Made by a program: the position numbers and the translations under genes. The notes under the pieces were generated by a model. The model was given only the letters and a program-made list of their open reading frames with translations, searched no databases and was not told the origin of the DNA. 64,000 nucleotides of DNA from Lysobacterales bacterium (GTDB taxonomy: Bacteria > Pseudomonadota > Gammaproteobacteria > Xanthomonadales > SZUA-5), in contig JALHMH010000010.1 of assembly GCA_022844165.1 (NCBI GenBank), positions 58,357-122,356 of the forward strand, given 5' to 3'. How positions within the stretch are numbered: position 1 is the stretch's first letter; every line of letters starts with the position of its first letter. Below are positions 4,655 to 46,446 of the stretch, piece after piece.

Positions 4655-4868
4655 CGTCATCATCAGGTTGTAAGAGCGCGTGCATCGTGATCCATCGCAC
4701 GAACCGCAATGGCGCGACCATCGAAGCTGCATCCCAGTCCGGCAATTCAAAGTGTCTGGTCGCTATCTCTCGGTCGCGCCATGACGCGACGCTGTGGTGG
4801 CTCCCGGCAAAGTGCGAAACACGCGGTGCAAGCAGCAAAGGATTCTATGGCCATCCCAAAACGTAGCG

Positions 4869-5738
4869 ATGTCTAACCCAACCGAAAACCTGGGCGTCGA
4901 GAGCGAGTTCTTCGGCCATCGGCACGTGACACAAATCGATAGCCGGATGCGCACCCTGGCGACCGACTTACGCGAAGCGTGGGCGTACCGCGATCTCCTG
5001 GTCATGCTCATCCAGCGCGACATCACCGTGCGCTACAAGCAAAGCGTGGTTGGCATCGCCTGGGCGGTGATCCAGCCGCTGACGATGATGCTGATCTTCA
5101 CCGTCATCTTCGGTGGTTTTGCCAAGTTGCCGTCCGACGGCGTGCCCTATCCGCTTTTCGCGATGGCTGCACTCATGCCGTGGCTGTACTTCTCGCGCGC
5201 GCTCACAGGCAGCGGCGATAGTCTGGTCGGTTCAGCGCATCTGGTCAGCAAGGTCTATTTCCCACGCATCATTTTGCCGATCGGCAAAGCCGTCTCCAGC
5301 CTCGTCGATTTTGCGATCACCTTAGTGCTTGCGGCAGTACTGCTCGCCTGGTACGGCATCAATCCAGGCTGGAAGGTGCTGACATTGCCGCTGTTCGTAC
5401 TGATGGCGATGTTCACCGCGCTTGCGATCGGGTTCTGGCTGACGGCGCTGAATGTGCGCTACCGCGATGTCGGGCTGGTGACGCCCTTCATCATTCAGAT
5501 CTGGATGTATATCTCGCCGATCGCCTATTCCATGTCGATTGTGCCGGAGGCCTGGCGCTGGCTGTATGCGCTGAATCCGATCGTCGGTATCGTCGAGGGA
5601 TTCCGCTGGGCACTGTTTGGTCGGGCGCTGCCCGAACTCGAACCGATGTTGATTTCTTACGCGGTCGTAGCGTTGCTGTTTATCACGGGCCTGCGCTACT
5701 TCCGACGCGTCGAACAAACCATGGTCGACGTGGTATGA
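4869..5738 (+). CDS. wzm: Polysaccharide ABC-2 exporter permease (Wzm), 289 aa
   Basis: YRDLLVMLIQRDITVRYKQSVVGIAWAVIQP is the ABC-2 (Wzm/KpsM/TagG) hallmark. Six hydrophobic segments. ATGA overlap with wzt. Confidence 0.85.
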   Translation: MSNPTENLGVESEFFGHRHVTQIDSRMRTLATDLREAWAYRDLLVMLIQRDITVRYKQSVVGIAWAVIQPLTMMLIFTVIFGGFAKLPSDGVPYPLFAMAALMPWLYFSRALTGSGDSLVGSAHLVSKVYFPRIILPIGKAVSSLVDFAITLVLAAVLLAWYGINPGWKVLTLPLFVLMAMFTALAIGFWLTALNVRYRDVGLVTPFIIQIWMYISPIAYSMSIVPEAWRWLYALNPIVGIVEGFRWALFGRALPELEPMLISYAVVALLFITGLRYFRRVEQTMVDVV

Positions 5739-7003
5739 GCGATCTGGCGATTCGCATCGAGAATCTAGGCAAACGCTACGTCTTGGGCGAAACCCACGAA
5801 CAGACATTGAGCGCGCAGTTCGGCCGATGGCTGAAGGCACCATTCCGGCCTCGAACCGAGGCGCGTATCGCTCCAAGCGAGTTTTGGGCGCTCACGAATA
5901 TCTCGCTGGATATTGCGAAAGGCGAGGCTCTGGGGATTGTCGGCGGCAACGGAGCGGGAAAATCGACATTGCTCAAGATCCTGTCGCGCATCACGCCGCC
6001 GACCAAGGGGCGAGCGCAAGTACACGGTCGATTGTCGAGCCTGCTCGAAGTCGGAACCGGTTTCCATCCGGAGCTGACGGGGCGCGAGAACGTCTTTCTG
6101 AACGGTACGATCCTCGGCATGCGCAAGGCCGAGGTCGCGCGCAAGTTCGACGAAATCGTCGCGTTTTCCGGCGTCGAGAAGTTCATCGACACGCCGGTCA
6201 AACGGTATTCCTCCGGCATGTATGTGCGGCTCGCGTTCGCGGTCGCAGCGCACCTTGAGCCGGACGTGTTGATCATCGACGAGGTGCTCGCCGTCGGCGA
6301 TGCTGAGTTTCAGAAACGCTGCCTGGGCAAAATGAGCGACGTCGCGCAGCAAGGTCGAACTGTGATTTTCGTCAGCCATAACATGGCGGCCGTGCAAAAG
6401 CTCTGCTCGCGGGCTGTGTGGATGGACCATGGCGAGGTCCGGACTTCAGGCAATCCGGCCGATGTCATCGGTGCATATCTGGAGTCCACCGCGCATCCGG
6501 CCGAATCCGGCGCTGTGAAACCTGGCTACGCGTATTGGCGCGCGGCGGTTCCGACGCGCACCGAGGTCACAGCAGTGCGCTATCTCGACGCGCAACACAG
6601 GCCGATCGGTCAATCCGCCACGGGGGACTCGCTCGCAGTTGAGATCGAATACACGGCGGCGCAGCCGTACCGCAGTTTTTCGGTTGTGCTGCAAGTGGCA
6701 ACACTCGATGGTGTTCCGTTGATACTGACCTCGACAACGCCCGATCGCGATTTGGCCTTTGCCGCGGACGCGGGACGACATCGTATTCGTTGCGTATTCA
6801 ATACGATTCCTCTGGCGGCCGGCGAGTACCTGTTGGGCGTCGGGTTGGCGATTCCGAACGTAGAGTATGTCTGGCGCGAAGACGGGCTTTGCAGATTGCA
6901 CGTCGCCCTGCGTGATGTGTTCGGATCAGGTTTGCCTCCCACGTCGGCACGCTACTTGATAGCCACCAGCCACGATTGGCATGCGCCGACGCCAATGCAG
7001 TGA
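5735..7003 (+). CDS. wzt: Polysaccharide ABC exporter ATPase (Wzt) with a C-terminal glycan-binding-type extension, 422 aa
   Basis: Walker A GGNGAGKST, signature variant YSSGMYVRLAFA and Walker B VLIIDEVLAVGD. About 170 extra C-terminal residues (from about 6480) have a beta-rich pattern like the Wzt_C domain. Confidence 0.88.
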   Translation: MSDLAIRIENLGKRYVLGETHEQTLSAQFGRWLKAPFRPRTEARIAPSEFWALTNISLDIAKGEALGIVGGNGAGKSTLLKILSRITPPTKGRAQVHGRLSSLLEVGTGFHPELTGRENVFLNGTILGMRKAEVARKFDEIVAFSGVEKFIDTPVKRYSSGMYVRLAFAVAAHLEPDVLIIDEVLAVGDAEFQKRCLGKMSDVAQQGRTVIFVSHNMAAVQKLCSRAVWMDHGEVRTSGNPADVIGAYLESTAHPAESGAVKPGYAYWRAAVPTRTEVTAVRYLDAQHRPIGQSATGDSLAVEIEYTAAQPYRSFSVVLQVATLDGVPLILTSTTPDRDLAFAADAGRHRIRCVFNTIPLAAGEYLLGVGLAIPNVEYVWREDGLCRLHVALRDVFGSGLPPTSARYLIATSHDWHAPTPMQ

Positions 7004-7118
7004 TCGCCTTGACGCGAAGCCGAAACGCGCTAACGCGCAAGTTCGGGCCAGGACAGCTTGGCGCCGAGGGATCGAGCGGCGGCGGCAACATGCTATTTGC
7101 GCAAAATGTCGGCCTGCG

Positions 7119-8015
7119 ATGGCCGCTGTAACCTGTCGTCACTGCGGGAGCGATCAGCTCGAACGCGTCGACGCTGGCTGGTTGCAAGACGCGACCTTAC
7201 TTCGCTGCATGCGATGCGATCTGACGCAGCGCCTGCCGATTCCGGACGACGCTGCGCTCGCCGCCCTTTATGCGGAGACACCGTCCGAGGCGATGGCCTA
7301 TGTTTTTGCCGATCACCCAGCGTGGACGACCGCGCTCGACGTGATGCGTTCGCGCTTGGGCGGCGGCTCGATCCAGGTGCTCGATATTGGCTGTCACACT
7401 GGCGAGTTTCTGGCGGCCCTTCCGGCGGGTTGGCGGCGCTTTGGCATCGAAAGCGCTTCGGCGCCGATCGCGATTGCACAAGCCAAGGGTACGAACATCA
7501 TTGCCGACCGATTGCAAACGGTGAGCACCGAATGGTTCGGTCGATTCGATGCCGTGACCGCGTTCGACGTGCTCGAACATTTGCCAGATCCGGCGTTGGC
7601 GATTGCCAGTGCGGCGCGCCTGTTGAAACCCGGCGGCCTGTTCTTGCTAAGCACCGCCGACATCGATTGTTGGACGTTTCGCGCTCTGCGCGGGGCGCAT
7701 TGGTATTGGCAGACTCCGCAGCACATCAGCGCCGTTTCGCGGCGGTTCCTGGCACAAGTGGCCGAGGAGCAGGGATTGGTGGTTTCGCAGATCCACGCGA
7801 TCGCACACCGCAGCGCCTCGGCCGCGGTGCGTTTGCGCGAATCGCTGCAAGTTTCGTATTGGTTTTGCCGCTTGCGTGGTGGCGCCTGGCGCGCACCGCA
7901 GCGTTTGCTGCATTGGGTTCCGGCGCTGCAAACGATGCGCCACTCGCAAATGCCACCTTGGGCGATGACGCTCAAAGATCACTGCATCGCCGTGATGGAA
8001 TCGGGCGCACGATGA
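7119..8015 (+). CDS. Class I SAM-dependent methyltransferase with N-terminal Cys4 zinc-ribbon, 298 aa
   Basis: CRHCGS...CMRCDL zinc-ribbon. SAM motif I VLDIGCHTGEF. FDAVTAFDVLEHLPDP and LLKPGGLFLLS. The start is chosen at the first Met before the zinc-ribbon. The track start at 6981 overlaps wzt and encodes an Arg-rich leader. Confidence 0.72.
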   Translation: MAAVTCRHCGSDQLERVDAGWLQDATLLRCMRCDLTQRLPIPDDAALAALYAETPSEAMAYVFADHPAWTTALDVMRSRLGGGSIQVLDIGCHTGEFLAALPAGWRRFGIESASAPIAIAQAKGTNIIADRLQTVSTEWFGRFDAVTAFDVLEHLPDPALAIASAARLLKPGGLFLLSTADIDCWTFRALRGAHWYWQTPQHISAVSRRFLAQVAEEQGLVVSQIHAIAHRSASAAVRLRESLQVSYWFCRLRGGAWRAPQRLLHWVPALQTMRHSQMPPWAMTLKDHCIAVMESGAR

Positions 8016-8773
8016 GAGAAGTCTTACGCTCGCTGTTAAATGCACTTGGACTGGACATCCGCCTGACGCGTAACTTGCGCGCTGCTGCGCTTGCAGCGCG
8101 CAAAGACCAGGAGTTCCACGCCTGGTCGCTGTTGCAACACCGCCGGTTTGTCAGCGTGCTCGACATCGGCGCCAATGAGGGCCAGTTCGCTACCCTCGCG
8201 CGTCGTTTATGGCCGCAAGCGCAGATCCACTCCTTTGAACCATTGCCTAAGGTCCACGCGGTTTTGCAACAAACGCTCAACGGCCTCGGGAATGCGCACG
8301 CGCACGCGCTGGCCTTGAGCCATCGCGCCGGGAAAACGGTGATGCACGCGAGCGCGTTTTCGCCGAGCTCGTCGCTCTTGCCGATGGCCGATTTACACCG
8401 CAGCGAATGGCCACAATCGGTCGAGCAAACGGCGGTCGAAGTCACGATGGCACGGCTCGACGACTGGGCCCGTGCTCAGCAGATTGCCGCGGGCCCACAG
8501 CTGATCAAGATCGATGTGCAAGGTCATGAGAAAGCGGTGATTGACGGTGGCCAGCAAACGCTGCGCTGCGCCGATGTGGTGGCGCTGGAAGTGTCGTTCT
8601 ACGTGTTGTACGAAAAACAACCGCTGTTTGCCGAAATCTTCCGTGCGATGAGCGAGCTCGGTTTCGTTTATCGCGGAAACATAGAGCAGTTCCGCAGTAA
8701 GGATGGGCGTCGTGTCCTATATGCAGATGCAGTATTCGAAAACCTGGAGCGTGTGAGTGCGGACGAGCGATAA
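8012..8773 (+). CDS. FkbM-family methyltransferase, 253 aa
   Basis: ATGA overlap. [11 protein letters not shown] and [16 protein letters not shown] are FkbM signatures. Only the C-terminal third of track ORF 7058..8773 is credible. Confidence 0.8.
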
Positions 8774-9827
8774 GAAATTGTTGGTCACGGGTTCGGCCGG
8801 ATTGATCGGCTCGGAAGCTGTCCACCATTTCTCCAGGCTTGGTTGGGATATTCGCGGTATCGACAACAACATGCGCGCAGATTTTTTCGGTGCAGATGGC
8901 GATACCCGTTGGAATCTGGAGCGGTTGTGTCGTCGTTGGCCCGCGTACCGTCATTTCGATCTCGATATCCGCGATCGCCACGCCGTGCTGGCGTTCTTGG
9001 ACGAACACCCGGCGGATCTGATCGTCCACGCTGCTGCGCAACCCTCGCACGATCTCGCGGCAAAGCGACCGTTCGACGATTTCGATGTCAACGCCGTTGG
9101 CACGTTGAATCTGTTGGAGGCCACCCGCCGGTCGTGCCCGGAAGCGACGTTTTGTTATCTGAGCACCAACAAAGTGTACGGCGATGCGCCGAATGAGCTG
9201 CCGCTGATCGAGCTGCCGACGCGCTGGGACTACGCACGCGCCGAAGACCAGCACGGCATTGGCGAAACGATGCGCGTCGACCAGTCCAAACACAGCCTGT
9301 TCGGCGCCAGCAAACTTGCGGCAGATGTGATGGTCCAGGAGTTCGGTCGCTACTTCGGCATGAAGACTGTTTGCTTACGCGGCGGGTGTTTGACCGGTTC
9401 GGCCCACAGCGGTGCTGAGCTGCACGGTTTTCTGGCCTATCTGGCGCGCTGCGTCGTTGAGGGGCGTCCATATCGTGTGTTTGGATATCTGGGAAAACAG
9501 GTGCGCGACAACATTGATGCCAGCGACGTTTGCGCATTCATCGAAGCGTTCCATGCGGCGCCGCGAGTTGGCGAGGTGTACAACATCGGCGGCGGTCGCG
9601 GTAACAGCATTTCAATGCTCGAAGCCATTGCCAAGCTCGAGGCGATCGCCGAGCGCAAGTTGTCCTGGACCTACATTGATGAGCCACGTTCGGGCGATCA
9701 CATTTGCTACATCTCGGATTTGCGCAAGCTGCAAGCGCACTATCCCGAATGGTGCGTCGCAGTGAATCTGGACGACATCCTGAGCAGCATCGTGCGGGTT
9801 TTGATCGAGGAACGCCGTGCGGCCTGA
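8757..9827 (+). CDS. Extended SDR, CDP-tyvelose/paratose 2-epimerase-like NAD-dependent epimerase, 356 aa
   Basis: [12 protein letters not shown] Rossmann motif. LSTNKVYGD...[12 protein letters not shown] aligns by eye with the RfbE-type STNKVYGD...SPYGCSKGAAD. The expected YxxxK motif reads FGASK here. Confidence 0.78.
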
Positions 9828-11058
9828 GGCATTGCCCAACGTCATCGACGAATCTGCCGAGTTCGCGGCAATGCGGACGCTACCGAATACCTTGCTGGTG
9901 ACCTGCACGCCGCCGGGCCAGAACGGCGTCGGTGCCATCATTCTCGACGATCTGATTCGTTTGTTTCCAAGCGATCGACTGACGGTCGCCGTGGTCGACA
10001 ATTCGGCGACAGCGGCGACGGACGTCCGTCACGGGATTCGCGTCGAGCACTTCGGCCGGCGCTATCGCCTGTCGGGCGGCGCCAGGTTCGGCCGAGTGGG
10101 TCGGGCGCTCGCGACGCCGATTGTTTCGAGTCTCCAGAGGGCGGCAACCAGCGCAAATCTTGTCGCTTTACGATCACTCCTGGCACAGGGGCAATTCGAT
10201 CGCATTTGGTTGGTACTCAGCAGTCCTTGGATCATCGATCTTGCCGCAGAGTTGATGGATGAAGGTGTTCCAGTGGTCGCATTGGTGTGGGACGACGTTG
10301 AGCACAATCTCAACTATTTCGGCGCCAGCTCCGGTACCCGGCGTCGGCTTCGGGCTGGATTCGACGCCGTGATGAAGCGCGCGCACCGGATCGCGGTGAT
10401 CGGCGAATCGATGCGCGACGAATACCGAGCACGCTATGGCCGAGATAGTGTCATCGTTCGCCACGGGTTGGCCCCTGCGTTGCCGATTTCGTACGCCGGC
10501 AGTGGCGATCTGGTGCGGATTGGTTTTGCTGGCAGCGTGACGGCGCGCAGCGCATTCGACCTGCTGCTTTCGACGCTCGATGACATGCATTGGCGAGTTG
10601 CCGCGCGTGACATCGAACTCTGCGTGATGGGCGGCCGATTCGATCTTTGGTCGCGCGTGCCACGGCGAATTCTCTGCCTGGGCTGGCGCGACGTAGCGGA
10701 CACCGTGGCAGAGCTGTCGCGCTGCACCTTCAACTACTTACCGCAACCCTTCGAGAGCGACTGGACAAACTTCGCATCGCTTTCGTTTCCATCGAAGACC
10801 ACAACGTATCTGGCGGCTGGCGCACCGCTGCTGATTCACGCGCCGCCACATGCGTCGCTGCCGCGGTTCGTTGCGGATCATCCAATTGCGCACACGGTTG
10901 ATCGTTTGGACGCGACGTTGCTGCGCGGTGCAATCGAAGATTTGGCAACCGATGCGAATCTCAGGGCGCGATTGTGCGAAGCCGGGCGCATCGCGCTTGA
11001 GCAGGTTTTTTCTCCCGATACCTTCCGGCGTTCGTTTCTGGAGTTTATCGACGCCTGA
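9817..11058 (+). CDS. Putative GT-B-fold glycosyltransferase-like protein, 413 aa (family not recognised)
   Basis: Operon-coupled (GTG 9817 overlaps the upstream gene by 11 nt, and the stop overlaps the asnB-like ATG). The composition is protein-like, and the C-terminal half resembles GT1/GT4 folds (IGFAGSV..., [18 protein letters not shown]) but has no clear EX7E motif. Alternative start ATG 9871. Confidence 0.5.
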
Positions 11059-12908
11059 TGTGTGGCATTTCCGGGCAGCTTTGGTTCGGCGGCCGCGTGG
11101 CCGATCGCGAACTTGCGTCCGCCATGAACGCCAGACTCGAGCACCGCGGTCCGGATGGCGGTGCAATCCATGTGTCTGGACCGATAGCGCTCGGTCACCG
11201 TCGCTTGGCGATCATCGATCCCAAATCGGGGCAGCAGCCGCTGTACAACGAAGATCGCAAGGTGGTCGCCATTGTCAATGGCGAGATCTACAACTACCGT
11301 GAGTTGCGTCGGCAACTGACCGATCTGGGCCACAGATTTGAGACTGCCGGCGACTGCGAAACGATCGTGCATGGCTATGAGCAGTGGGGCGCGGCAGTCG
11401 TTGAGCGATTGCGCGGCATGTTCGCCTTCGCCCTGTGGGACGAGCGTGCGAATCGGCTGCTGCTGGCGCGAGATCGCTTAGGGATCAAGCCGCTGTGTTA
11501 CACGGTCAACAATCAGCGCCTGTTGTTTGCGTCGGAACTGCAGGCGTTGACCGTTGCGACGGATTTCGACCGCACCGTTGATCTTGATGCGCTGGATGCC
11601 TATCTGCATCTGCAATACATTCCTGCGCCAAAGACGATTTACGCGAACACCCGTAAGCTCGAGCCGGGTCATCTGCTGGAGGCTGACGCGAGCGGACGGA
11701 TATCGCCGGTGCGCCGCTGGTGGACGTTGCGCTGGCAACCAGACCGGCACCGATCCGACGCCGAGTGGGCCGAAGCCACCGATGCTGCATTGAAAGATGC
11801 GGTGCGTTCACACCTGGTGGCAGACGTCTCTTTCGGCGCTTTTTTGTCCGGCGGTGTTGATTCAAGTACGGTCGTGGCGTACGCGGCAGAAGCGCTGGCT
11901 ACGCCTTTGACGACATTCACGATCGGCTTCGACGTTCCATCGTTGGACGAACGCGCCGAGGCACGGCGCTTTGCCGAGGTCGCTCAGACTCGTCATCAGG
12001 AACAGCTGGTTGGCGTCGACGCCCTGGCGCTATTGCCGTCCATCGCACGACATTATGGCGAACCGTTCGCCGACAGCTCAGCGGTGTGCACCTGGCGCGT
12101 CTGCGAGCAAGCGCGGCGCGAAATGCCTATGGTGCTTTCTGGCGACGGCGGCGACGAAGTGTTTGCCGGTTACGACTATTTCCCGAAGCTCGTAGAAACC
12201 TATCCGGAACGCGCCGGACTGCTTGCGGTGAAGCGACGGATCGGTAATCTGCTGCGCGCGGTGGGCGCCATCACAGCCGCCCCTACATTGAGCGATGCCT
12301 GGTACGGGCGTTCTCCATTTTTCGGCGATCCGGCGCGGCGTCTGTTGTGGCGCACGGAGCATCGCACGCGCACCGAGGCAACACGTGTGTGGAACGCCAC
12401 GCAGTTCTCATCGAATGTTGGGCTCGATACCCTGGCGCGCGCCCAGGATGTCGATCTCAAGACCTATTTGCCGAACAACAATCTGGCGAAGGTCGATATC
12501 GCCAGCATGGCCAACGGGCTAGAGGTGCGAGTCCCGCTGCTTGATCATTTGCTCGTCGAGACCATCGCGTCAATGCCTGCGTCGCAACGTCTGCGCAAGA
12601 CCGAGAACGGCTGGTGCACAAAGTTCGCGCTGAAGACTGCCGCGAACCGCTTCTACCCATGGGATTGGCTCAACACCAACAAACGCGGATTCTCGGTTCC
12701 CGTCGGTCACTGGATGAGCGCTATGGGCGGCGAGTTGCGGTCGCGATTGAGCGATTCTCGTGGCCCGGTGCATCAGTTGTTCGAGCCCAATGTGGTGAAT
12801 CAGTTACTCAATGAGCATGCCGCTGGACAAGATCATGGTCATCGTCTCTGGAGCCTGCTGGTGCTCGACGAATGGCATCGTCAGTTTGGAAGTGGTTCGC
12901 AAGCATGA
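11058..12908 (+). CDS. Asparagine synthase-like glutamine amidotransferase (WbpS/AsnB-type), 616 aa
   Basis: N-terminal MCGI provides the Cys2 Ntn nucleophile. HRGPDG motif. PP-loop FLSGGVDSS. Full two-domain AsnB length. Confidence 0.9.
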   Translation: MCGISGQLWFGGRVADRELASAMNARLEHRGPDGGAIHVSGPIALGHRRLAIIDPKSGQQPLYNEDRKVVAIVNGEIYNYRELRRQLTDLGHRFETAGDCETIVHGYEQWGAAVVERLRGMFAFALWDERANRLLLARDRLGIKPLCYTVNNQRLLFASELQALTVATDFDRTVDLDALDAYLHLQYIPAPKTIYANTRKLEPGHLLEADASGRISPVRRWWTLRWQPDRHRSDAEWAEATDAALKDAVRSHLVADVSFGAFLSGGVDSSTVVAYAAEALATPLTTFTIGFDVPSLDERAEARRFAEVAQTRHQEQLVGVDALALLPSIARHYGEPFADSSAVCTWRVCEQARREMPMVLSGDGGDEVFAGYDYFPKLVETYPERAGLLAVKRRIGNLLRAVGAITAAPTLSDAWYGRSPFFGDPARRLLWRTEHRTRTEATRVWNATQFSSNVGLDTLARAQDVDLKTYLPNNNLAKVDIASMANGLEVRVPLLDHLLVETIASMPASQRLRKTENGWCTKFALKTAANRFYPWDWLNTNKRGFSVPVGHWMSAMGGELRSRLSDSRGPVHQLFEPNVVNQLLNEHAAGQDHGHRLWSLLVLDEWHRQFGSGSQA

Positions 12909-15083: not shown

Positions 15084-15120
15084 GGGCAAATCCCGTCGCG
15101 AACAGTGACGCCAAGTCATC

Positions 15121-17147: not shown

Positions 17148-17160
17148 GGAGCGCCCACGC

Positions 17161-32605: not shown

Positions 32606-32843
32606 CCAGTCTTCCATTCGCATGGGAAGTGTTCCGCGGCTTCAACGCGAATGCTGCAGGGCGCCTGGTCGCCATTCGCTGCCATGACTTCATCCAAGAT
32701 GTCGGCGCCGCCGTCAGCTTCGGCGGGCGCATTGCTCGCGCGATGCAGGCATGCCAGCCTGCGCCCTCGGGCTTCTCCCGGGCCCAAGTCCACCGGAGAC
32801 ATATTCCAATGACACCGGGACCTCAGGCTGGTCGAACAGTGCA

Positions 32844-36234: not shown

Positions 36235-36235
36235 G

Positions 36236-38350: not shown

Positions 38351-38436
38351 GCTTGTGCGGTGGTTCAGCATATGATGGCGCTGGGAATGGCGATCCCCGT
38401 AACGCCAAGTCGCACGAATGATCCTTTAGCCAGCCG

Positions 38437-39276
38437 ATGAATTCCGGACTTTCTATGGCAGGCGAAGTTGCGCGCATCGATTTTGTGATTCCGTTTCGAG
38501 CGCGCACGACAACGACGAATTGGAGGCGAGCTTGCCAGCTGCTCACCGATACGCTGCGTTCCGTCGAGAACTCGTCGGACGCTCGATGGCGTGCGATCGT
38601 CGTCTGCCATGACGAGCCAATCGGCATCCCTTCGGACCGGCAAGTTCTTGTCGTTCGCGCGCCATTCGAACCTCCAGGGCCGGATTCGCAGAATCTTGCA
38701 ACGAAGCGGCGGCTCTTTGTCTGGGAGACGGATAAGGGGCGTAAGCAGTTGGCGGGCGTTGATTTGGTACGTCGTTCTGGGTCAAAGTACTTTATGCTGC
38801 TGGATGCCGATGACCTTATTTCCTCGCGGCTGGTCGAATGGTGTCTGGCGCGCGATCATCCTGCGGGTTACTTCATCGACGAGGGCTATCGATTGGATGA
38901 CACGAATCGCGATCGCCTCTACTTTCGTCGCCGGTTTTTCCAAGAGTGCGGAAGCAGCTCAATACTGCGAACAACGGTGGCGCCGTTCCCGGCGAAGCTT
39001 GACTACACGCTGGATCTCAATGACAAGTTCACCCGCCGCTACGTCGTTCACGCCTACATTCCGGAAGCCATGGCGGCGTTGGGGCAGCCGATGGAACGAG
39101 TGCCTTTTCCCGCGGCCGTGTATCGATTTCACGATCAGAACATCTTCGCCAACTCAGCCCGAAAAAAAGAATCCTGGCTCAGGCGCCAATTTCGGAATCT
39201 GCTCCGTGGCAGGCTACTTGACTGCCGGCTTCGATCTGAGTTCAGCATCCCCGATGCGCGTGGCCAGGGCGAATAA
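38437..39276 (+). CDS. Putative GT-A-fold glycosyltransferase, 279 aa
   Basis: IDFVIPFRART..., YFMLLDADDLIS (DxD). Same strand and same locus. The family is not firmly recognised. Confidence 0.5.
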   Translation: MNSGLSMAGEVARIDFVIPFRARTTTTNWRRACQLLTDTLRSVENSSDARWRAIVVCHDEPIGIPSDRQVLVVRAPFEPPGPDSQNLATKRRLFVWETDKGRKQLAGVDLVRRSGSKYFMLLDADDLISSRLVEWCLARDHPAGYFIDEGYRLDDTNRDRLYFRRRFFQECGSSSILRTTVAPFPAKLDYTLDLNDKFTRRYVVHAYIPEAMAALGQPMERVPFPAAVYRFHDQNIFANSARKKESWLRRQFRNLLRGRLLDCRLRSEFSIPDARGQGE

Positions 39277-39302
39277 CGGTTTCTGGCTGATGGGGCGCTA
39301 AG

Positions 39303-40703
39303 ATGGCATTGTGGGGACTGTTGGGGTTGATTGTCGCCAGCGTGTTTGCCACATTCGCGAAATGGCGACTGGCGATACCTGGTGCCATCCTTGTCGTGGC
39401 CTTGCAAGATCCGGTCCGTAAGTTGACACCGGGCACACCCGGATGGATGACACTGCTGGTCGTTCCCTTGGTTGTCGCTGGCCTGATGGCAATGTTCGCA
39501 ACAGTGCCTGACGTCTGGCGCCGGTTCGCGCGCAATAATCCGAAGATCGCCCAAATGCTTGCGCTCCTCGTGTTGTTATCGATTCCATCGATCATCATTT
39601 CCCTGACCTTCGGACCTGGGAGCTGGCAGTTCACTTTCTTAGGCGTGTTTTCCTACTCGATCATTTTTCTATCTGTACTACTTGGCTACTTTTATGCGCG
39701 AGATATCGAAACAGCGCTCAACCTGTTGGCGACCTATTGCCTGATACATGGGGTCGTACTGATCGGTGCTTTGGTCGAATATTTGGATCTTTGGCCAGGC
39801 GCACAGATCATTGGTTCCCATGCACTAGGCTACGAGTGGATTCGTTGGATCCCCGGTTACACCGTGGAGATGATCTCTGGCTTTTACCGAAGCTCCGATG
39901 TCATGGGCTGGCACGCCGCCATGGTCTGTATGTTGTCGGTCACACTAGCCATAGCAAAGTCTGGCAAAGCCCGTTTTTTCTGGGTTCTCGTGAGTGCCTG
40001 GGCCGTACTTGCTCTGCTGCTTTGCGGCCGCCGTAAAATGGTTTACATGCTGCCGATCTTTATTCTCGTTCTGACCTGGATTTACTTCTCTGCAGGTCGA
40101 GCTTCGCGAGTATTGCCTATGATCGGCTTTTTGATCGTGCCGGCGGCATCGGTGTTGGTGACCAGCGATATGTTGGGCGAGAACACGGCGAACATCCGCT
40201 ACTACACGTCGGCGAATGAGGGCGATAGCACCCTTGATCGCCTCCAGTCGCACGGGTTGGGCGAGATTCTTGAAACCTACCGGCAAATGGGCTTTTTCGG
40301 CGCAGGACTTGGTTTCGGTACGCCAGGCTCGCATCACATTAACGCCAATCGGCCCAGGGTGTGGCAAGAAAGCGGTCCCGGTCGCGTGATGGCGGAACTC
40401 GGAGTGCCGGGTTTCTTGTGCTTTCTCGCCACTTTGGCGGCCATCGGGGTTGTGATGTGGCGAGTGACCCGAACCTGGTTGATTGCTCGTACCCGTGAGG
40501 GCGTTCTTTGCGCATGCCTGATGTCGGTCGCCGTGGCCAATCTCGGTAGCCTGACGATTTCCGGCCAGATTCTGGCGGACGTGTTTGTCGTTGTGTTTCT
40601 CGGATTTCTGGTCGGCCTGGTGCTGAGTTTTGGTCGGCGCGATCTTGTGGAGCTGGTTTTGCAGCGAAACCAGGGGCGCTCTTTGCCAGCCTTCGCCGAA
40701 TGA
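39303..40703 (+). CDS. O-antigen ligase/polymerase family (Wzy_C-type) integral membrane protein, 466 aa
   Basis: At least 10 hydrophobic segments. A periplasmic-loop pattern FGAGLGFGTPGSHHINAN...ELGVPGFLCFL resembles the Wzy_C/WaaL motif (G-x-G ... H-x-H-N ... E-x-G). Confidence 0.62.
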   Translation: MALWGLLGLIVASVFATFAKWRLAIPGAILVVALQDPVRKLTPGTPGWMTLLVVPLVVAGLMAMFATVPDVWRRFARNNPKIAQMLALLVLLSIPSIIISLTFGPGSWQFTFLGVFSYSIIFLSVLLGYFYARDIETALNLLATYCLIHGVVLIGALVEYLDLWPGAQIIGSHALGYEWIRWIPGYTVEMISGFYRSSDVMGWHAAMVCMLSVTLAIAKSGKARFFWVLVSAWAVLALLLCGRRKMVYMLPIFILVLTWIYFSAGRASRVLPMIGFLIVPAASVLVTSDMLGENTANIRYYTSANEGDSTLDRLQSHGLGEILETYRQMGFFGAGLGFGTPGSHHINANRPRVWQESGPGRVMAELGVPGFLCFLATLAAIGVVMWRVTRTWLIARTREGVLCACLMSVAVANLGSLTISGQILADVFVVVFLGFLVGLVLSFGRRDLVELVLQRNQGRSLPAFAE

Positions 40704-41248
40704 GCCTCGACATCGAAGGCAATCGCGGCGCCCGCCCATATCGGTCCCGAGAATACGTTGCACGTGTGCTCTGGGCCCTCGCTTATCCGTTGTTCCGCTG
40801 GTCCCCTCGGGTGCTGTTCGGCTGGCGAGCGTTTTTGCTGCGCAGATTCGGTGCGCGGGTTGGGCGGCAGGTTCACGTCTATCCGCGGGCTGCGATTGAG
40901 CTGCCTTGGATGTTGGACATCGGCGAATTCAGCAGCGTTGCCGACGGTGTGCGCATCTATAACCTCGGGCTGGTTCGTATCGGTGCGCGCAGCACGATTT
41001 CCTTCGGCGCCCACGTCTGCGCTGGAACACACGACTACGAAAGTGCGGCCTTTCCGTTGCAAAGACTACCGATCGATATCGGTCACGATGTCTGGATTTG
41101 TGCCGACGCGTTCCTGGCGCCAGGCGTAACGATTGGCGATGGTGCCGTCGTCGCCGCACGCGCAGTGGTGGTCGATGTGGTCCCCGCGTGGACCGTTGTG
41201 GCCGGACATCCGGCCCGAGTGGTCAAGCAGCGAGCCATCTTGCCTTGA
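40700..41248 (+). CDS. WcaF-like hexapeptide O-acetyltransferase, 182 aa
   Basis: ATGA overlap. The N-terminal WRAFLLRRFGARVG is typical of WcaF-type proteins. Hexapeptide repeats IGHDVWICADAFLAPGVTIGDGAVVAARAVV. Confidence 0.8.
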   Translation: MSLDIEGNRGARPYRSREYVARVLWALAYPLFRWSPRVLFGWRAFLLRRFGARVGRQVHVYPRAAIELPWMLDIGEFSSVADGVRIYNLGLVRIGARSTISFGAHVCAGTHDYESAAFPLQRLPIDIGHDVWICADAFLAPGVTIGDGAVVAARAVVVDVVPAWTVVAGHPARVVKQRAILP

Positions 41249-41309
41249 CGAACCACGGGCTCGTCTGCCGGGTGTTCGCCGTGCGCGACAATGCGAAGGC
41301 GTCTTGCCT

Positions 41310-42137
41310 GTGATATCGATTGTCGTGCTGACATTGAATGAGGCGGAAAATCTGCCGCGATGCCTGGCGAGTGTGTCGTTCTCTGACGATGTGCTTGTGC
41401 TCGACTCTGGTAGCAGCGATGCGACTGTCGAAATTGCTCGTAAGTTCGGCGCTCGAGTCGCCACGCGGAGCTTCGATTCTTTTGCCCAACAGCGCAACGC
41501 GGCCATGGCGATGGAGTTACGGCATCCTTGGGTGCTGCATCTGGATGCCGATGAGGTGGTCACACCGGCTTTGGCGCACGAGTTGATTGAAATTGCGAGT
41601 GCGCAGGAGTCCAGCCCGGTTGCCTTTCGAGTCGCATCGCGACTGATGTTTCGCGGCGCGTGGCTGAAGCACGCCGGCATGTTTCCAGCGTATCAGGTTC
41701 GTTTCGGGCGTCAAACTGTGTTGCGCTTCATCGATGTCGGTCACGGCCAGCGCGAAGCTGAAAACATCGGATCGATCGGCACCCTGAATTACCCTCTGGT
41801 GCACTACAATTTCTCGCGCGGGATCGGCGATTGGTTCGAGCGGCATCTGCGGTACGCGAAGCTCGAAGCGCAGCGCGCTGCATTGCGGGAAACGCCAAGT
41901 CTGGCGGGGTTGTTGGGGCCGGATCCGGTGGCGCGGCGGCGTTCGCTGAAACGACTCGCTGATCGACTGCCGGCGAGGCCGCTGTTGCGCTTTCTTTACT
42001 GCTATCTGCTTCGGCGCGGATTTCTCGATGGTCGCGCCGGGTTCCACTACGCATGCATGATGGCCATCTACCAGTATTTCATCGACCAACATGTCATCGA
42101 GCAAGCGCTCAAAAAGGACGCAAATGACAGTATCTAA
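41310..42137 (+). CDS. Glycosyltransferase family 2, about 275 aa
   Basis: [21 protein letters not shown]...[12 protein letters not shown] and HLDADE motifs. The GTG 41310 start is approximate. Confidence 0.75.
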
Positions 42138-43245
42138 AAAGGTGGCGCTGTTGACCGGCGTCACCGGCCAGGACGGCGCGTACTTATCGGAGTTGCTGCT
42201 GAGCAAGGGTTACATCGTGCACGGCATCAAGCGTCGTGCCTCATTGTTCAACACCCATCGTATCGATCACATCTATCAAGATCCGCACACCGATGATCGC
42301 AACTTCATCTTGCATTACGGCGATCTGACCGATTCGACCAATTTGATTCGCATCATCCAATTGGTGCAACCGGACGAGATCTACAACCTTGGTGCGCAGA
42401 GCCATGTGGCGGTATCGTTTGAGAGCCCGGAATACACGGCCAACTGCGATGCGCTCGGCACGTTGCGGCTTCTGGAGGCCATTCGCATTCTGGGGCTGGA
42501 GGGAAAGACGCGAATCTACCAGGCATCCACATCGGAAATGTTCGGCAAAGTGGCAGAGGTGCCGCAACGCGAGACAACGCCGTTTTATCCGCGCTCGCCC
42601 TATGGCGCTGCCAAGGTCTACGCGTACTGGATTACGGTCAATTATCGCGAGTCGTATGGCTTGTATGCCTGCAACGGCATCCTCTTCAACCATGAGTCGC
42701 CATGGCGCGGCGAGACGTTCGTGACGCGCAAGATCACGCGCGCATTGGCCCGTATCAGTCTTGGGTTGCAAGACCGGCTGTACTTGGGAAATCTCGAGGC
42801 CCTGCGCGACTGGGGGCACGCGCGCGACTACGTCCAGGCAATGTGGCTCATGCTGCAGCAGCCGCAGGCCGAGGACTACGTAATCGCAACAGGCGAGCAG
42901 CATTCTGTGCGCGAGTTCGTCGAATTGGCGTGCCGGGAACTCGGCATCGTGATTGAGTGGCAGGGGAGTGGCGACCAGGAGATCGGCGTGGTGGCGCAAT
43001 CGACCGAGCGGTCACGCGTACGGCAGGGGCAGGCGATTGTCGCCGTAGACCCTCGTTACCGCCGGCCCGCGGAGGTCGACACCTTGCTCGGCGACGCGAG
43101 CAAAGCGCGGCGGCAACTCGGCTGGCAGCCGCAAACGAGTTTCGAATCGTTGGTGGCAGAAATGATCCGGGAAGACGTTCGTTCCGCCGAGCGTGACGAA
43201 GTCGTCCGCAAGGCCGGATATCGCGCCTTCGATCATCACGAGTAG
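42124..43245 (+). CDS. gmd: GDP-mannose 4,6-dehydratase, 373 aa
   Basis: [40 protein letters not shown] and [12 protein letters not shown] are canonical Gmd motifs. Confidence 0.92.
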
Positions 43246-43250
43246 CCGCA

Positions 43251-44189
43251 ATGGATGGTCGCTTTCGAAAAGTATTCGTCGCCGGACACAAAGGTCTCGT
43301 CGGCAGTGCGATCGTGCGTCGCCTTGAGCGCGATGGCATCGAGCCTTTGGTTGTAGATCGCCATGCGCTCGATCTTCGGGATCAGCGCGCAGTGGACCAG
43401 TGGTTTGCGAAGGCGCGGCCCGATGCGGTCATACTCGCGGCCGCGAAAGTCGGCGGCATCCACGCCAACAACACCCGTCCGGTTGAGTTTCTGCTCGATA
43501 ACCTACGAATTCAAAACGCCGTGATTCCCGCCGCTCACGCGCATGGCGTGCGCAAACTGGTGTTTCTTGGATCGTCGTGCATTTATCCCAAGTTGGCGCC
43601 TCAGCCGATCCAGGAAAGTGCTCTGCTCACCGGCCCACTCGAGCCTACTAACGACGCATACGCGCTCGCCAAAATCGCCGGCATCCGCCTCTGCCAGGCG
43701 TATCGCCAGCAGCATGCATTCGAAGCCATCTCGTTGATGCCGACCAATTTGTACGGGCCCAACGACAATTTCCATCCCATCGACTCGCATGTCTTGCCGG
43801 GTCTGATTCGCCGGTTCCACGAAGCGCAGAACGCGGGCGCTGAGCGGATCGTGATCTGGGGCAGTGGCACGCCGCGTCGCGAGTTTCTGCATGTCGATGA
43901 TCTGGCTGATGCCTGCATTTTCTTGCTGGCGAACTACGATTCGGGCGAGGTCATCAACGTCGGCGTTGGGAAGGACATTTCGATACTCGAGCTGGCCCAG
44001 TTGATCGCCAAGATCGTGGGCTTTCGGGGCACAATCGAGCACGATTTGAGCAAGCCAGACGGCACACCTCGCAAACTGCTGGACGTGGGCAAATTGTCGG
44101 CGCTGGGATGGACCGCGCGAATCGGCCTGGAAGAAGGCATCGCCGAAACCTACCGCTGGTTTTGCGCACACGTAGGATCGGTGCGATGA
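43251..44189 (+). CDS. fcl: GDP-L-fucose synthase (GDP-4-keto-6-deoxymannose 3,5-epimerase/4-reductase), 312 aa
   Basis: VFVAGHKGLVGSAI, GSSCIYP and YALAKIAG motifs. It immediately follows gmd. Confidence 0.9.
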   Translation: MDGRFRKVFVAGHKGLVGSAIVRRLERDGIEPLVVDRHALDLRDQRAVDQWFAKARPDAVILAAAKVGGIHANNTRPVEFLLDNLRIQNAVIPAAHAHGVRKLVFLGSSCIYPKLAPQPIQESALLTGPLEPTNDAYALAKIAGIRLCQAYRQQHAFEAISLMPTNLYGPNDNFHPIDSHVLPGLIRRFHEAQNAGAERIVIWGSGTPRREFLHVDDLADACIFLLANYDSGEVINVGVGKDISILELAQLIAKIVGFRGTIEHDLSKPDGTPRKLLDVGKLSALGWTARIGLEEGIAETYRWFCAHVGSVR

Positions 44190-45160
44190 AGGTGCTGGTC
44201 GTCGGTGGCGCTGGTTACATCGGTGCGCATATGGTTCGCTGGCTGGTCGACCATGCGATTACGGTCGAGGTTCTGGACAACCTGAGCACCGGGCATCGAG
44301 CAGCGATCCCGGATGGCATTCATCTGCATCAGGTGGATTTGCGGGAGCGTCAGGCGACAGAGAGCGCATTGCAGGCGATTCGGCCCGATGTCGTTTTTCA
44401 CTTCGCTGCGAAAGCTCTCGTCGGCGAGTCCGTCAGTCGACCGATTGAGTACTACGAAAACAACTTTGTCGGTACTTTGAACCTTCTGCTGGCCATGCGC
44501 GCAGCCGCTTGCCGCCGCATTGTATTTTCATCGACCTGCGCTGTTTACGGTATCCCGAAAACCGAGAACCTCGACGAGCAACATCCGCGCGAGCCCATTA
44601 ACCCCTATGGCGCGAGTAAGTTAGCTTGTGAGGATCTGCTGAGGGATTGCGCTGCGGCCGGCGACGTGTCGGCGGTCGCTCTGCGTTACTTCAACGCCGC
44701 TGGCGCGCATCCCAGCGGTACGATTGGCGAGGCGCACGAGCCGGAAACGCACCTGATACCCAACGCAATCCGTGCCGCATTGGGTCAGCTACCAACGTTG
44801 GCGATCCATGGCACGGACTATCCAACGCCCGACGGCACTTGCATTCGCGACTACATCCACGTTGAAGATCTGGCTTCGGCACATGCGCTTGCCATGCGCT
44901 GGCTTGAGAAAAACGAAGGCTGGCAGGCCATCAACCTGGGTACAGAACTTGGCAGCAGTGTTTTCCAGGTGCTTGCGCTGGTCGAAGAACTCAGTGGCAA
45001 AGTGGTGCCTTGTCAGAGGACGGTTCGCCGGCCAGGTGATCCGCCGCGACTGGTCGCCAGTGCGGTGCTGGCGCGCAAGTGTTTAGGGTGGCGCCCACGC
45101 CACGATTTGCGATCGATCCTCGAGTCCGCGTGGCGTTGGCACCGGTCGCCTCGATATTGA
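44186..45160 (+). CDS. galE: UDP-glucose 4-epimerase family (second copy), 324 aa
   Basis: ATGA overlap. VLVVGGAGYIGAH, SSTCAVYG and NPYGASKLACE motifs. Confidence 0.85.
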   Translation: MKVLVVGGAGYIGAHMVRWLVDHAITVEVLDNLSTGHRAAIPDGIHLHQVDLRERQATESALQAIRPDVVFHFAAKALVGESVSRPIEYYENNFVGTLNLLLAMRAAACRRIVFSSTCAVYGIPKTENLDEQHPREPINPYGASKLACEDLLRDCAAAGDVSAVALRYFNAAGAHPSGTIGEAHEPETHLIPNAIRAALGQLPTLAIHGTDYPTPDGTCIRDYIHVEDLASAHALAMRWLEKNEGWQAINLGTELGSSVFQVLALVEELSGKVVPCQRTVRRPGDPPRLVASAVLARKCLGWRPRHDLRSILESAWRWHRSPRY

Positions 45161-45375
45161 GTCGCTTAAGAGAACAGTTTCTTGTTTCGTTCAAATCCGG
45201 AACCGAAACATCTGGGCCCATGCGACAAGCTTTTTCGAATCAACCTGTGTATCCACTGAGATTGTTGCAATGTGCGCATTTTTGGAATACGGCCGATATT
45301 TCGCTTGAATCTACCGGTTATTGACCCCCAGAATACGCGGAGCCGACATCTTTTCGCGGGTCGTAAAGGGGATTC

Positions 45376-46446
45376 ATGTCGACGCTCTATCTAGTGTCGC
45401 TGGCGGGTGTGGTCTCGTTCATCACGACGGCGCTGTTAGTTCGCACCGCTCCAGTCATCGGCCTGTTGGATCATCCCATTGCCGATCGAAAATCCCATGA
45501 CGCGCCGACGCCAGTGGTGGGCGGGCTAGGGATTTTAGCTGGCCTGATTGTATTCCCGGCATTCGCCGGTGTGCTGGACAACGCGCAGTGGTTTTGGCTG
45601 CTCAGCGCTGCCGTGCTATTGGCGGCCATTGGTGTGGCAGATGATCGCTATGACCTCCGATGGTATTGGCGCATAGCGGCCCAGGTGTTGGCCGCGTTGC
45701 TCATCGCGATTCCAGGGCAGACATCGATTCAAAGCTTGGGCGCGAGTACCTATTTGTCGCTTGAATTAGGTAGTTGGGCGTTGCCGTTCACAATATTCGC
45801 GGTGGTCGGCGTGATCAACGCGACGAACATGATTGATGGCATGGATGGCTTGGCTGGGACCATGGCTTTGGTCTCGCTGCTTGCGATGGCGCTGATCGCA
45901 TCCGAACCTCAGCTGAGCCAGTTTTTGTGGGCGACCGTGGCGATGCTTCTTGCGTTCCTGGCCTTCAATCTCAGGCGACCGGGATTGCCCAGGGCTGCAT
46001 GCTTTTTGGGCAATAGCGGTAGTGCCATCGTTGGTTTGGTTCTGGCCTGGTCGGCAATTCGGTTGACGGCAAGCGGAGACCCCAGCCCGTCCATCGCGCC
46101 CTGGCTTGTTGCGCTGCCAATCCTCGATTGTCTGATTCAGATCGCACGCCGGCTGCTGAACCGTCGTTCGCCTTTTTCGGCGGATTCTGGTCATTTACAC
46201 CATTTGTTGACCAATCACGGATGGAGCGTGGGCGCGACGGTGGCTGTTCTGGTCGGGATGCACGTGGCGTTCGTGTGCGTTGGTATTGGGTTCGCCTACG
46301 CTGGCTCAGACGCGTTGTATCCGATTTCTGGGTTCATTTCGCTATTGCCGTTGTTGGGACTTGGGTACTGGGCGCTGAATCGACATCCGATGGCTGATGA
46401 TGCAATCAACCTGACGTTGGCCTCGGACCTCACGAGCCGCCGATAG
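45376..46446 (+). CDS. wecA: Undecaprenyl-phosphate HexNAc-1-phosphate transferase (WecA/MraY family), 356 aa
   Basis: AAAGGGGA Shine-Dalgarno before the ATG. Polytopic membrane protein with NATNMIDGMDGLAG and DDRYDL motifs. Confidence 0.85.
   Translation: MSTLYLVSLAGVVSFITTALLVRTAPVIGLLDHPIADRKSHDAPTPVVGGLGILAGLIVFPAFAGVLDNAQWFWLLSAAVLLAAIGVADDRYDLRWYWRIAAQVLAALLIAIPGQTSIQSLGASTYLSLELGSWALPFTIFAVVGVINATNMIDGMDGLAGTMALVSLLAMALIASEPQLSQFLWATVAMLLAFLAFNLRRPGLPRAACFLGNSGSAIVGLVLAWSAIRLTASGDPSPSIAPWLVALPILDCLIQIARRLLNRRSPFSADSGHLHHLLTNHGWSVGATVAVLVGMHVAFVCVGIGFAYAGSDALYPISGFISLLPLLGLGYWALNRHPMADDAINLTLASDLTSRR

Follow-up and report, generated by a model that had tools for sequence, protein, structure and literature searches.

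We analyzed a 64,000-nucleotide (nt) stretch of contig JALHMH010000010.1 (positions 58,357 to 122,356 of the forward strand; GenBank assembly GCA_022844165.1) from a Lysobacterales bacterium. This stretch, referred to here as the window, carries a very long gene cluster for a surface glycan exported by an ATP-binding cassette (ABC) transporter. An earlier note made from the sequence alone had described about 40 consecutive + strand genes running from wzm to wecA. In the revised gene model, which combines open reading frame (ORF) lists, start codon candidates, Pfam domain positions, and orthologue alignments, 38 uninterrupted + strand genes run from wzm (starting at 4869) to the WecA-like gene (ending at 46446), with one frameshifted acyltransferase gene entered once. 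Coding sequence makes up 40,889 of the 41,578 nt of this row (98%). The row lies beside a gene for a C25 peptidase, prfB, and lysS.

The first gene of the row, wzm (4869 to 5738), encodes an ABC-2 permease (Pfam ABC2_membrane PF01061, 78.9 bits) that is 60 to 92% identical among the relatives found. It is joined by an ATGA overlap to the adjacent wzt (5735 to 7003), which encodes an ATPase (ABC_tran PF00005, 78.1 bits) with a C-terminal Wzt_C carbohydrate-binding domain (PF14524, 36.2 bits against a cutoff of 30.4). The nucleotide-binding domain of Wzt is 73 to 85% identical to those of the relatives and the C-terminal domain only 40 to 66%, the faster divergence expected of a glycan-specific binding module. 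Two methyltransferase genes follow, one for a zinc ribbon-Methyltransf_23 protein (7119 to 8015, start set by the orthologue) and one for an FkbM family protein (8012 to 8773), joined to each other by an ATGA overlap. The overlap between wzt and the Methyltransf_23 gene that had been described is not there, as the latter starts at 7119, 115 nt after wzt. The pattern of two methyltransferase genes after wzt is kept in the relatives. By their position, these enzymes are candidates for chain termination or capping; no kinase domain was found, nor could a kinase of the WbdD type or a coiled-coil terminator be identified.

Pfam and NCBIfam bore out the inventory proposed for the row, and Wzm together with a Wzt that carries Wzt_C confirmed an ABC-dependent glycan locus with unusually many glycosyltransferases (GTs) and tailoring enzymes. 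There are 15 GT proteins with 16 catalytic domains: seven of GT2 type, five of GT4 type (one of them weak), one STELLO/DUF288 protein, one fused GT2-GT4 protein, and one protein of GT-B fold that has no Pfam match. Six methyltransferases are encoded (one Methyltransf_23, three FkbM, one CmcI/Methyltransf_24, and one Methyltransf_11), along with two intact Asn_synthase/GATase proteins, two hexapeptide (Hexapep) transferases, two Acyl_transf_3 (AT3) proteins, one of them with an SGNH domain, and one Polysacc_deac_1 deacetylase. Precursor enzymes within the row are Gmd, Fcl, two GalE proteins, and one further enzyme from the family of short-chain dehydrogenases/reductases (SDR).

All genes of the row are on the + strand, and assignments are from Pfam except where stated. 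Downstream of the two methyltransferase genes lie an SDR epimerase or dehydratase gene (8757 to 9827) and a weak GT4-like gene (9871 to 11058), whose products are 88 and 80% identical to their orthologues in the closest relative (L006). AsnB-like amidotransferase 1 (11058 to 12908) is above the NCBIfam cutoff for asn_synth_AEB, and its closest model is the amidotransferase of PEP-CTERM exopolysaccharide (EPS) systems. It is followed by a GT4 (12905 to 14158), a GT2 (14142 to 15083), and the second FkbM methyltransferase (15121 or 15190 to 15990). The product of the next gene (15990 to 17147) gave only marginal matches in a profile search of PDB, and the fold search was needed to place it: its AlphaFold2 model (pLDDT 94.4) had only GT-B proteins as top Foldseek matches (TreT at 9.6e-9, T4 BGT, and MshA). 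The block from 17161 to 23484 encodes the CmcI/Methyltransf_24 methyltransferase, the STELLO/DUF288 GT, a GT2, AsnB-like amidotransferase 2 (19830 to 21668), a GT2/Glyco_transf_7C protein, and the Methyltransf_11 methyltransferase; its genes overlap by 11, 4, 1, 4, and 4 nt, and its products are 69 to 85% identical to the L006 orthologues.

Between 23481 and 30714 lie genes for the NodB-type deacetylase, two GT2 proteins, a GT4 (26214 to 27383), the first hexapeptide acyltransferase, the third FkbM methyltransferase (27933 to 28796), a further GT2, and a GalE-type 4-epimerase (29707 to 30714; NCBIfam 381 bits, above cutoff). The AT3-SGNH O-acyltransferase gene (30711 to 32605) is frameshifted near 31200 to 31280, so that Acyl_transf_3 is split over two frames ahead of the SGNH domain. 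In the closest relative, the orthologous gene encodes an intact protein of 631 amino acids (aa), which aligns with frame +3 and then with frame +2. The window copy may be a pseudogene or reflect an assembly error, and at least one tailoring step may thus be lost. The segment from 32844 to 38350 encodes a GT4 (GT4c) that probably starts at 32844, an AT3 acyltransferase (33935 to 35056), another GT4, and the fused GT2-GT4 protein (36236 to 38350). The fusion is a single ORF of 704 aa; the closest relative (L001) has in its place two genes, for 325 and 360 aa, separated by a 61-nt spacer, and after them an extra epimerase gene that the window lacks. The conserved ORF at 38437 to 39276, which has a DADD motif and is 60 to 62% identical to its orthologue in L001 and L004, had been labeled GT-A-like. 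It belongs to no family detectable in Pfam, NCBIfam, or PDB, and comparison with a GT2 of the locus gave no support for a GT-A assignment.

Beyond a gene for a polytopic membrane protein (39303 to 40703) described below, the segment from 40700 to 45160 encodes the second hexapeptide acyltransferase, a GT2 (41304 to 42137), Gmd, Fcl, and the second GalE (44186 to 45160). This is the most conserved block, at 57 to 91% identity across five lineages. Gmd (580.8 bits) and GalE 2 (390 bits) are above their NCBIfam cutoffs and Fcl scores 497.4 bits against a cutoff of 500; Gmd and Fcl are predicted to supply GDP-L-fucose. Within the locus, stretches of 76 to 86% nucleotide identity were found between the two AsnB-like genes (11058 to 12908 and 19830 to 21668), among the three FkbM genes (8012 to 8773, 15121 to 15990, and 27933 to 28796), and between the two GalE genes (29707 to 30714 and 44186 to 45160). 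These paralogues suggest that the locus has grown through internal duplication.

The genes of the row are very tightly packed. Where at least 15 NTGA overlaps had been claimed, we counted 4-nt stop/start overlaps at 18 of 37 junctions (12 ATGA, 3 GTGA, 2 TTGA, and 1 CTGA). The additional overlaps of 1 to 17 nt were likewise found, at 8 more junctions (1, 11, 14, or 17 nt; 1 nt at 3 of the 37). A survey of 720 genomes put overlapping codirectional pairs at about 15% in most prokaryote groups (PMC6728339). The 26 overlaps at 37 junctions greatly exceed this genome average (binomial tail 6e-14 at p = 0.15, and 1e-5 at p = 0.35, an assumed rate of overlap inside operons). The overlaps are not artifacts of start calling, because three lines of evidence agree: orthologous junctions in the gene calls of relatives overlap identically, the GT2 Pfam domains start 7 to 8 residues past the start codon of the 4-nt overlap, and both AsnB-like proteins begin with Met-Cys at an ATG that overlaps the upstream gene by 1 nt. 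The alternative ORFs at 6981 to 8015, 7058 to 8773, 25614 to 27383, and 38591 to 39301 were rejected as over-extended frames, judged by where the orthologues start and where the domains lie.

Most starts show weak Shine-Dalgarno pairing, with −6 kcal/mol reached at only 6 of the 26 overlapping ones. At the GT4 gene starting at 26214, no ATG, GTG, or TTG lies near the conserved N terminus RILFAADV, and the overlap codon is CTG (CTGA, 26214 to 26217). The same junction reads TTGA and ATGA in orthologues, which means that the start has drifted from ATG or TTG in the relatives to CTG in the window with the 4-nt overlap retained. This CTG is possibly a noncanonical start sustained by reinitiation, or it marks the loss of a start codon. 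The junction pattern as a whole is compatible with the translational coupling proposed earlier, and translation is, judging from the sequence, probably coupled by termination-reinitiation.

Four junctions are loose, with gaps of 115 nt (7003 to 7119), 238 nt (32605 to 32844), 86 nt (38350 to 38437), and 215 nt (45160 to 45376); at sites that are loose in the window, the junctions of relatives are tighter. Simple scans found promoter-like and terminator-like sites across the locus at or below the shuffle expectation, so no internal unit boundaries can be called from them. RNA scans found no Rfam family and no tRNA.

The locus extends upstream of wzm; the earlier note, in beginning it at 4869, drew its 5′ limit too narrowly. 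The window opens within a gene (1 to 1404, + strand) for a type I ABC exporter, a fused transmembrane and nucleotide-binding half-transporter (Pfam ABC_tran) of which only the 3′ part is included. The encoded part is 65% identical to a 549-aa exporter of the closest relative (L012), which is located there after genes for an RfaH-like protein and a MarR_EPS regulator; its best NCBIfam matches, to CydD, HepA, MsbA, and PglK, are all under cutoff. A 1-nt overlap joins this gene to one for a TviB-like UDP-N-acetylglucosamine 6-dehydrogenase (1404 to 2678, + strand; N-terminal, central, and C-terminal UDPG_MGDP_dh domains), which scores 530 bits with the NCBIfam TviB model (cutoff 592) and 360 bits, above cutoff, with the NDP-sugar dehydrogenase model. 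The TviC-like SDR epimerase gene that follows through a GTGA overlap (2675 to 3682, + strand; Pfam Epimerase, weak NCBIfam TviC match) probably encodes a uronic acid C4 epimerase, and the TviB-like enzyme is predicted to make a 2-acetamido uronic acid precursor. The L012 orthologue of the TviC-like gene (78% identical) leads directly to wzm, and the genes at 1 to 3682 belong to the locus.

In the window, a vapB-vapC toxin-antitoxin module (4025 to 4654, + strand; Pfam PIN domain, with an AbrB-like antitoxin ORF read from the sequence) stands between the TviC-like gene and wzm. No vapBC homologue was found at this site in the relatives compared, which marks it as an insertion that splits an otherwise contiguous operon; it has no part in glycan synthesis. 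A 33-nt element with the palindrome GTCGCGCCATG(A/G)CGCGAC occurs twice in the window in opposite orientations, about 70 nt upstream of wzm (4766 to 4798) and at the start of lysS (54021 to 54053). A REP-like element and a regulator site are both possible readings.

The relatives show what the head of the operon looks like. In L012, the row opens with a gene for an RfaH-like NusG paralogue, for which the RfaH model is best (128 bits, cutoff 144.5), ahead of NusG, UpxY, and LoaP. It is followed by the gene for the MarR_EPS regulator, which scores above its cutoff, and by that for the ABC exporter of 549 aa. An Arenimonas sp. (L010) and the Xanthomonadales metagenome-assembled genome (MAG) JADJCM010000001.1 (L013, here JADJCM) also have the NusG-Pfam paralogue and a MarR gene. 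Between the RfaH-like and MarR genes of all three lies an ops element of enterobacterial type: the 12-mer GGCGGTAGCGTG is exact in Arenimonas (L010, 6557 to 6568), GGCGGTAGCGTC in JADJCM matches at 11 of 12 positions (L013, about 6456 to 6467), and GGCGGCAGCCTG in the closest relative matches at 10 of 12 (L012, 4694 to 4705). The leader is conserved in L010 and L013. L012 additionally has two tandem MITE-like elements of about 190 nt with palindromic ends (4140 to 4560) between the RfaH-like gene and the operon leader. The window itself does not contain the ops/JUMPStart element (GGCGGTAGnnTG; no GGCGGTAG), the head of its operon lying upstream of base 1. An RfaH-like gene and ops at the operon head of relatives are good indirect evidence that the entire row is transcribed processively.

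At the other end, the WecA-like gene (45376 to 46446, + strand) encodes an initiating polyprenyl-phosphate transferase of WecA type, putatively for N-acetylhexosamine-1-phosphate (Pfam Glycos_transf_4 PF00953, 122.9 bits; NCBIfam WecA 184 bits, under the 326 cutoff). It had been given as the last gene of the row. Functionally it is linked to the row, but with the 215-nt gap before it and its inverted orientation in the closest relative, it is probably a transcription unit of its own.

Farther downstream lies a 1667-aa ORF (46528 to 51531) that ends in a Peptidase_C25 (gingipain-like) domain and contains Gly-rich GGTGGCGGT repeats near 48520 to 48870; it adjoins the locus in the closest relative too (77% identity). 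A fourth FkbM family methyltransferase gene (51626 to 52393), downstream of the C25 gene and outside 4869 to 46446, may functionally be part of the glycan locus. The prfB gene for release factor 2 (52545 to 53640, with the ORF0 ATG at 52545) has the canonical programmed +1 frameshift site AGGGGGTTTCTTTGAC at 52605 to 52620. The prfB-lysS intergenic region contains a 53-nt inverted repeat (53701 to 53753 and 53862 to 53914; 92% complementary, 108 nt apart) with tandem GAGGGCAC octamers.

The locus is not confined to this genome. The closest relative, represented by the Lysobacterales MAG JALHMG010000001.1 and by assemblies of that organism in ENA (L001, L004, L006, and L012), has the same locus gene for gene at 60 to 92% protein identity, differing in the separate GT2 and GT4 genes, the extra epimerase, one rearranged trio, and tighter junctions. 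An 82-kb JGI metagenome contig (L007 and L008) carries about 41 genes in a collinear row of roughly 42 kb (43 to 78% identity). A frame consisting of wzm-wzt at the 5′ end and a 3′ block (GT4, the membrane protein of 39303 to 40703, hexapeptide transferase, GT2, gmd, and fcl) is shared with the Arenimonas sp. (L010 and L011), where the middle is different. Thermomonas carbonis (L009), of which the 3′ block is in view and not the part upstream, has this block in common; in both Arenimonas and T. carbonis the genes between the frame ends differ. JADJCM has wzm-wzt and a locus head with a Wzy_C protein, the RfaH-like gene, and MarR, and it carries a homologue of the membrane protein on the same contig. 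Methyltransferase content differs between lineages. Homologues of Wzt, the GT-B protein, and the membrane protein recur on contigs of the same size across many metagenomes.

At least four other lineages of Lysobacterales, among them Arenimonas and, in part, Thermomonas, have syntenic loci of about 40 kb. This makes the locus a feature of the lineage and not a one-off, and "exceptional" is too strong a word for it. Because the GT set is collinear and 43 to 88% identical in two other lineages, these GTs appear to act together rather than form a chance mosaic. Locus GC is about 0.60, equal to that of the flanks, with a mild dip to 0.566 at 38 to 41 kb; this dip apart, atypical GC as a sign of horizontal transfer was looked for and not found.

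The membrane protein encoded at 39303 to 40703 (+ strand; 466 aa, about 12 transmembrane segments) is, by its predicted polytopic fold with a periplasmic loop, a divergent member of the WaaL/Wzy superfamily. The AlphaFold2 model (pLDDT 82.8, pTM 0.85) has the O-antigen ligase WaaL (7TPG) as its top PDB match in Foldseek (E 1.6e-6, TM 0.50/0.56), followed by the SEDS protein FtsW. The sequence has no match to Wzy_C (PF04932) even at an E value of ≤10 and no NCBIfam match, and a PDB profile search was empty. Homologues form a small, discrete family (745 representatives at E ≤ 1e-3 among 1.84 billion), the members of which are always placed among the GTs of these giant wzm/wzt loci. Among 39 distant members, 6 match Wzy_C (best E 2.3e-5), and some sources label homologues as "O-antigen ligase family," which is annotation only. 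R243, R244, K245, and H204 are invariant, and W-Q-E-S stands where the canonical H-N-x-x-L motif would be. In Arenimonas and JADJCM the locus head additionally codes for a canonical Wzy_C protein, with an H-N-D-Y-L-E motif in the Arenimonas one; a canonical protein beside the divergent one means that the latter need not be an ordinary ligase. A Wzy polymerase, which would imply a Wzx/Wzy pathway, was rejected as the principal interpretation because neither Wzx nor Wzz is present among the scanned genes, and it survives as part of the hybrid pathway considered below. On the strength of the modeled fold, the protein is a candidate O-antigen ligase.

Several known systems resemble this locus in part. 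The Wzm-Wzt-WbdD systems of Escherichia coli O8/O9a and the Klebsiella/Raoultella O12 system likewise have wzm-wzt with Wzt_C, WecA-type initiation, cytoplasmic GTs, and methyltransferase genes beside wzt, and they have no Wzx or Wzz. These systems need about 3 to 5 GTs, whereas the window locus has 15 GT proteins and many tailoring enzymes, lacks an identifiable kinase or coiled-coil terminator of the WbdD type found in O8/O9a, and includes a Wzy/WaaL-fold protein amid its GT block. The wxc-type lipopolysaccharide (LPS) loci of Xanthomonas and Stenotrophomonas, from the same order and located between metB and etfA, are also led by wzm-wzt with the wzt start overlapping the wzm stop and include gmd-type genes for GDP-sugars (PMC2238763). 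They measure 12.2 kb (7 genes), 19.9 kb (17 ORFs), 19.6 kb, and 15.3 kb (10 ORFs) (PMC2238763), and the present locus, in line with the earlier remark that typical loci are much smaller, is 2 to 3.5 times larger. At 12 to 20 kb, the wxc-type loci have two convergent units, a hypervariable site, and atypical GC (PMC2238763), whereas the window locus, all on one strand, is at least 46 kb long, occupies another genomic site, is collinear across genera, and has the GC of its flanks, which also sets it apart from typical horizontally shuffled O-antigen loci.

There are precedents for large ABC-dependent loci. The Bordetella wbm O-antigen locus (Bordetella bronchiseptica and Bordetella parapertussis) has 24 genes in about 32 kb (PMC5784241). 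Most wbm genes serve precursor synthesis, while the window locus is dominated by glycosyl-, methyl-, and acyltransferases. The wbm product, which is exported by an ABC transporter and contains uronic acid sugars and a modified terminal residue, with AsnB-like amidotransferases encoded in the locus, is an essentially homopolymeric O chain; locus size alone is therefore no predictor of the complexity of the repeat unit. The RfaH-like NusG paralogue and the 12-nt ops (GGCGGTAGCGTG) in the operon leader of relatives recall the RfaH/ops (JUMPStart) operons of enterobacteria, with the differences that the regulator gene is at the operon head itself, together with MarR_EPS, and that the RfaH score is 128 versus 144.5 bits. 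The 466-aa protein shares its predicted fold with WaaL (7TPG) and the Wzy_C superfamily, which some distant family members match, but it lacks a Wzy_C match, has W-Q-E-S for H-N-x-x-L, and is accompanied in two relatives by a Wzy_C protein of canonical type.

We conclude that a one-strand cluster of at least 46 kb for a surface glycan exported by an ABC transporter is real and that the glycan is probably an LPS O-antigen. The locus is at the upper end of the ABC-dependent class, chiefly by the number of its GTs, and has the parts and logic of a known system. We consider it reasonably probable that this region makes up most of a single, very long (at least 46 kb) operon for an LPS O-polysaccharide assembled by the ABC transporter-dependent route. 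A WecA-type enzyme would prime undecaprenyl phosphate with N-acetylhexosamine phosphate, on which the 15 cytoplasmic GTs (16 domains) would assemble the whole glycan at the membrane's inner face. Precursors made by the locus would include GDP-L-fucose (Gmd and Fcl), UDP-Gal/UDP-GalNAc (the two GalE proteins), and 2-acetamido uronic acids (the TviB- and TviC-like enzymes). The two AsnB-like enzymes may convert uronic acids to uronamides, sugars that fit the presence of TviB/TviC-like genes beside two intact amidotransferase genes; the six methyltransferases would methylate, the two hexapeptide transferases acylate, and the NodB-type enzyme de-N-acetylate. The two methyltransferases encoded after wzt may then cap the nonreducing end with methyl, a cap that the C-terminal domain of Wzt would read before Wzm/Wzt export the finished lipid-linked glycan. 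At the periplasmic face, AT3 and AT3-SGNH would O-acylate the glycan and the WaaL superfamily enzyme would ligate it to lipid A-core. One long mRNA, kept processive as RfaH/ops in the relatives suggests, would supply all of these proteins, most cistrons being translated by termination-reinitiation at the ATGA-type overlaps.

Several observations weigh against this reading. The gaps of 115, 238, 86, and 215 nt could hold internal promoters missed by a simple scan, the RfaH/ops head is outside the window and predicted from relatives, wecA is inverted in the closest relative, and the AT3-SGNH gene is frameshifted. The lack of a Pfam Wzy_C match makes the ligase role of the WaaL-like protein that of a candidate only. 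The type I exporter as a second ABC exporter in the same operon, and the canonical Wzy_C protein beside the divergent WaaL-like one in relatives, also fit a model with two routes.

In such a model, one operon would make two products: a glycan exported by Wzm/Wzt and a second lipid-linked oligosaccharide flipped by the PglK/Wzk-like type I exporter and then ligated or polymerized by the divergent WaaL/Wzy-like protein, with the conserved 3′ block (GT4d, unk3, Hex2, GT2f, gmd, and fcl) serving one glycan and the variable middle the other. Two distinct ABC export systems in one gene row, the pairing of canonical and divergent proteins in both Arenimonas and JADJCM, and the GC dip to 0.566 at 38 to 41 kb are consistent with it, as is a 3′ block that is 57 to 75% conserved in Arenimonas and T. 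carbonis while the middle is swapped (sulfotransferase, GT11, and an acyl carrier set). A conserved frame with a variable middle is, however, normal for single O-antigen loci too. There is a single initiating transferase, with no second polyprenyl-phosphate glycosyl-phosphate transferase among the scanned genes, and the visible Arenimonas and JADJCM heads show no type I exporter even though the divergent WaaL-like gene is present, so that the two are not an obligate pair. We regard two products as rather unlikely, and a single complex glycan is the more likely outcome. In a bolder form that we think quite improbable, the divergent protein would be a new class of periplasmic enzyme in a hybrid pathway, joining or polymerizing large blocks made in the cytoplasm and delivered by an ABC exporter, or serving a non-LPS acceptor. 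If true, either two products would come from one operon under RfaH control, or a block polymer would arise through combined ABC and Wzy-type chemistry.

It is also improbable, to a slightly greater degree, that the product is something other than an LPS O-antigen, either a protein O-glycan, transferred by the WaaL-like protein in the role of a PglL-type oligosaccharyltransferase, or a polysaccharide that is secreted or capsular. The fold common to WaaL, PglL, and Wzy does not let a fold search tell them apart, the regulator is of the MarR_EPS type, AsnB1 is closest to the amidotransferase of PEP-CTERM EPS systems, and a large secreted C25 peptidase-like protein is a conserved neighbor. Against this, Wzt_C-type transporters are characteristic of O-polysaccharide export, and homologues of the WaaL-like protein are named O-antigen ligase family in some sources (annotation only). 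Pfam scans of the genes in the 64-kb window detected no Wzx, Wzz, Wza, or Kps export genes; the KpsD and KpsE export proteins, the KpsC and KpsS linker enzymes, and an exosortase were likewise not found among them. Equally doubtful is a collection of adjacent gene sets for several polysaccharides (core, O-antigen, and other) that happen to share a strand, the overlaps reflecting genome compaction instead of coupling. The four gaps of 86 to 238 nt, the vapBC insertion that parts the head from wzm, the inverted wecA of a relative, and the methyltransferase content that varies among lineages would all suit such a patchwork. Yet the row is collinear across lineages at 45 to 88% identity, the junctions of relatives are tighter at the loose sites of the window, an RfaH/ops head is a usual mark of very long single operons, and among the scanned genes none was detected from the heptosyl- or Kdo-transferase families of lipid A-core. 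One long, ABC transporter-dependent O-polysaccharide operon is the interpretation that we prefer.

The general pathway is well known, and current models are not overturned by this locus. It predicts an unusually elaborate surface glycan that carries fucose, uronic acids in amidated form, and numerous methyl and acyl groups, in little-studied environmental Lysobacterales, and the same type of locus in cultured Thermomonas and in genomes of Arenimonas makes the prediction testable. With 21 junctions that overlap by 4 or 1 nt and one CTG start, the row is also a natural case for the study of very long, translationally coupled operons. The conserved and uncharacterized WaaL/Wzy-like family within ABC-dependent loci is a concrete lead for glycobiology, and its interest could rise further if it defines a hybrid pathway.

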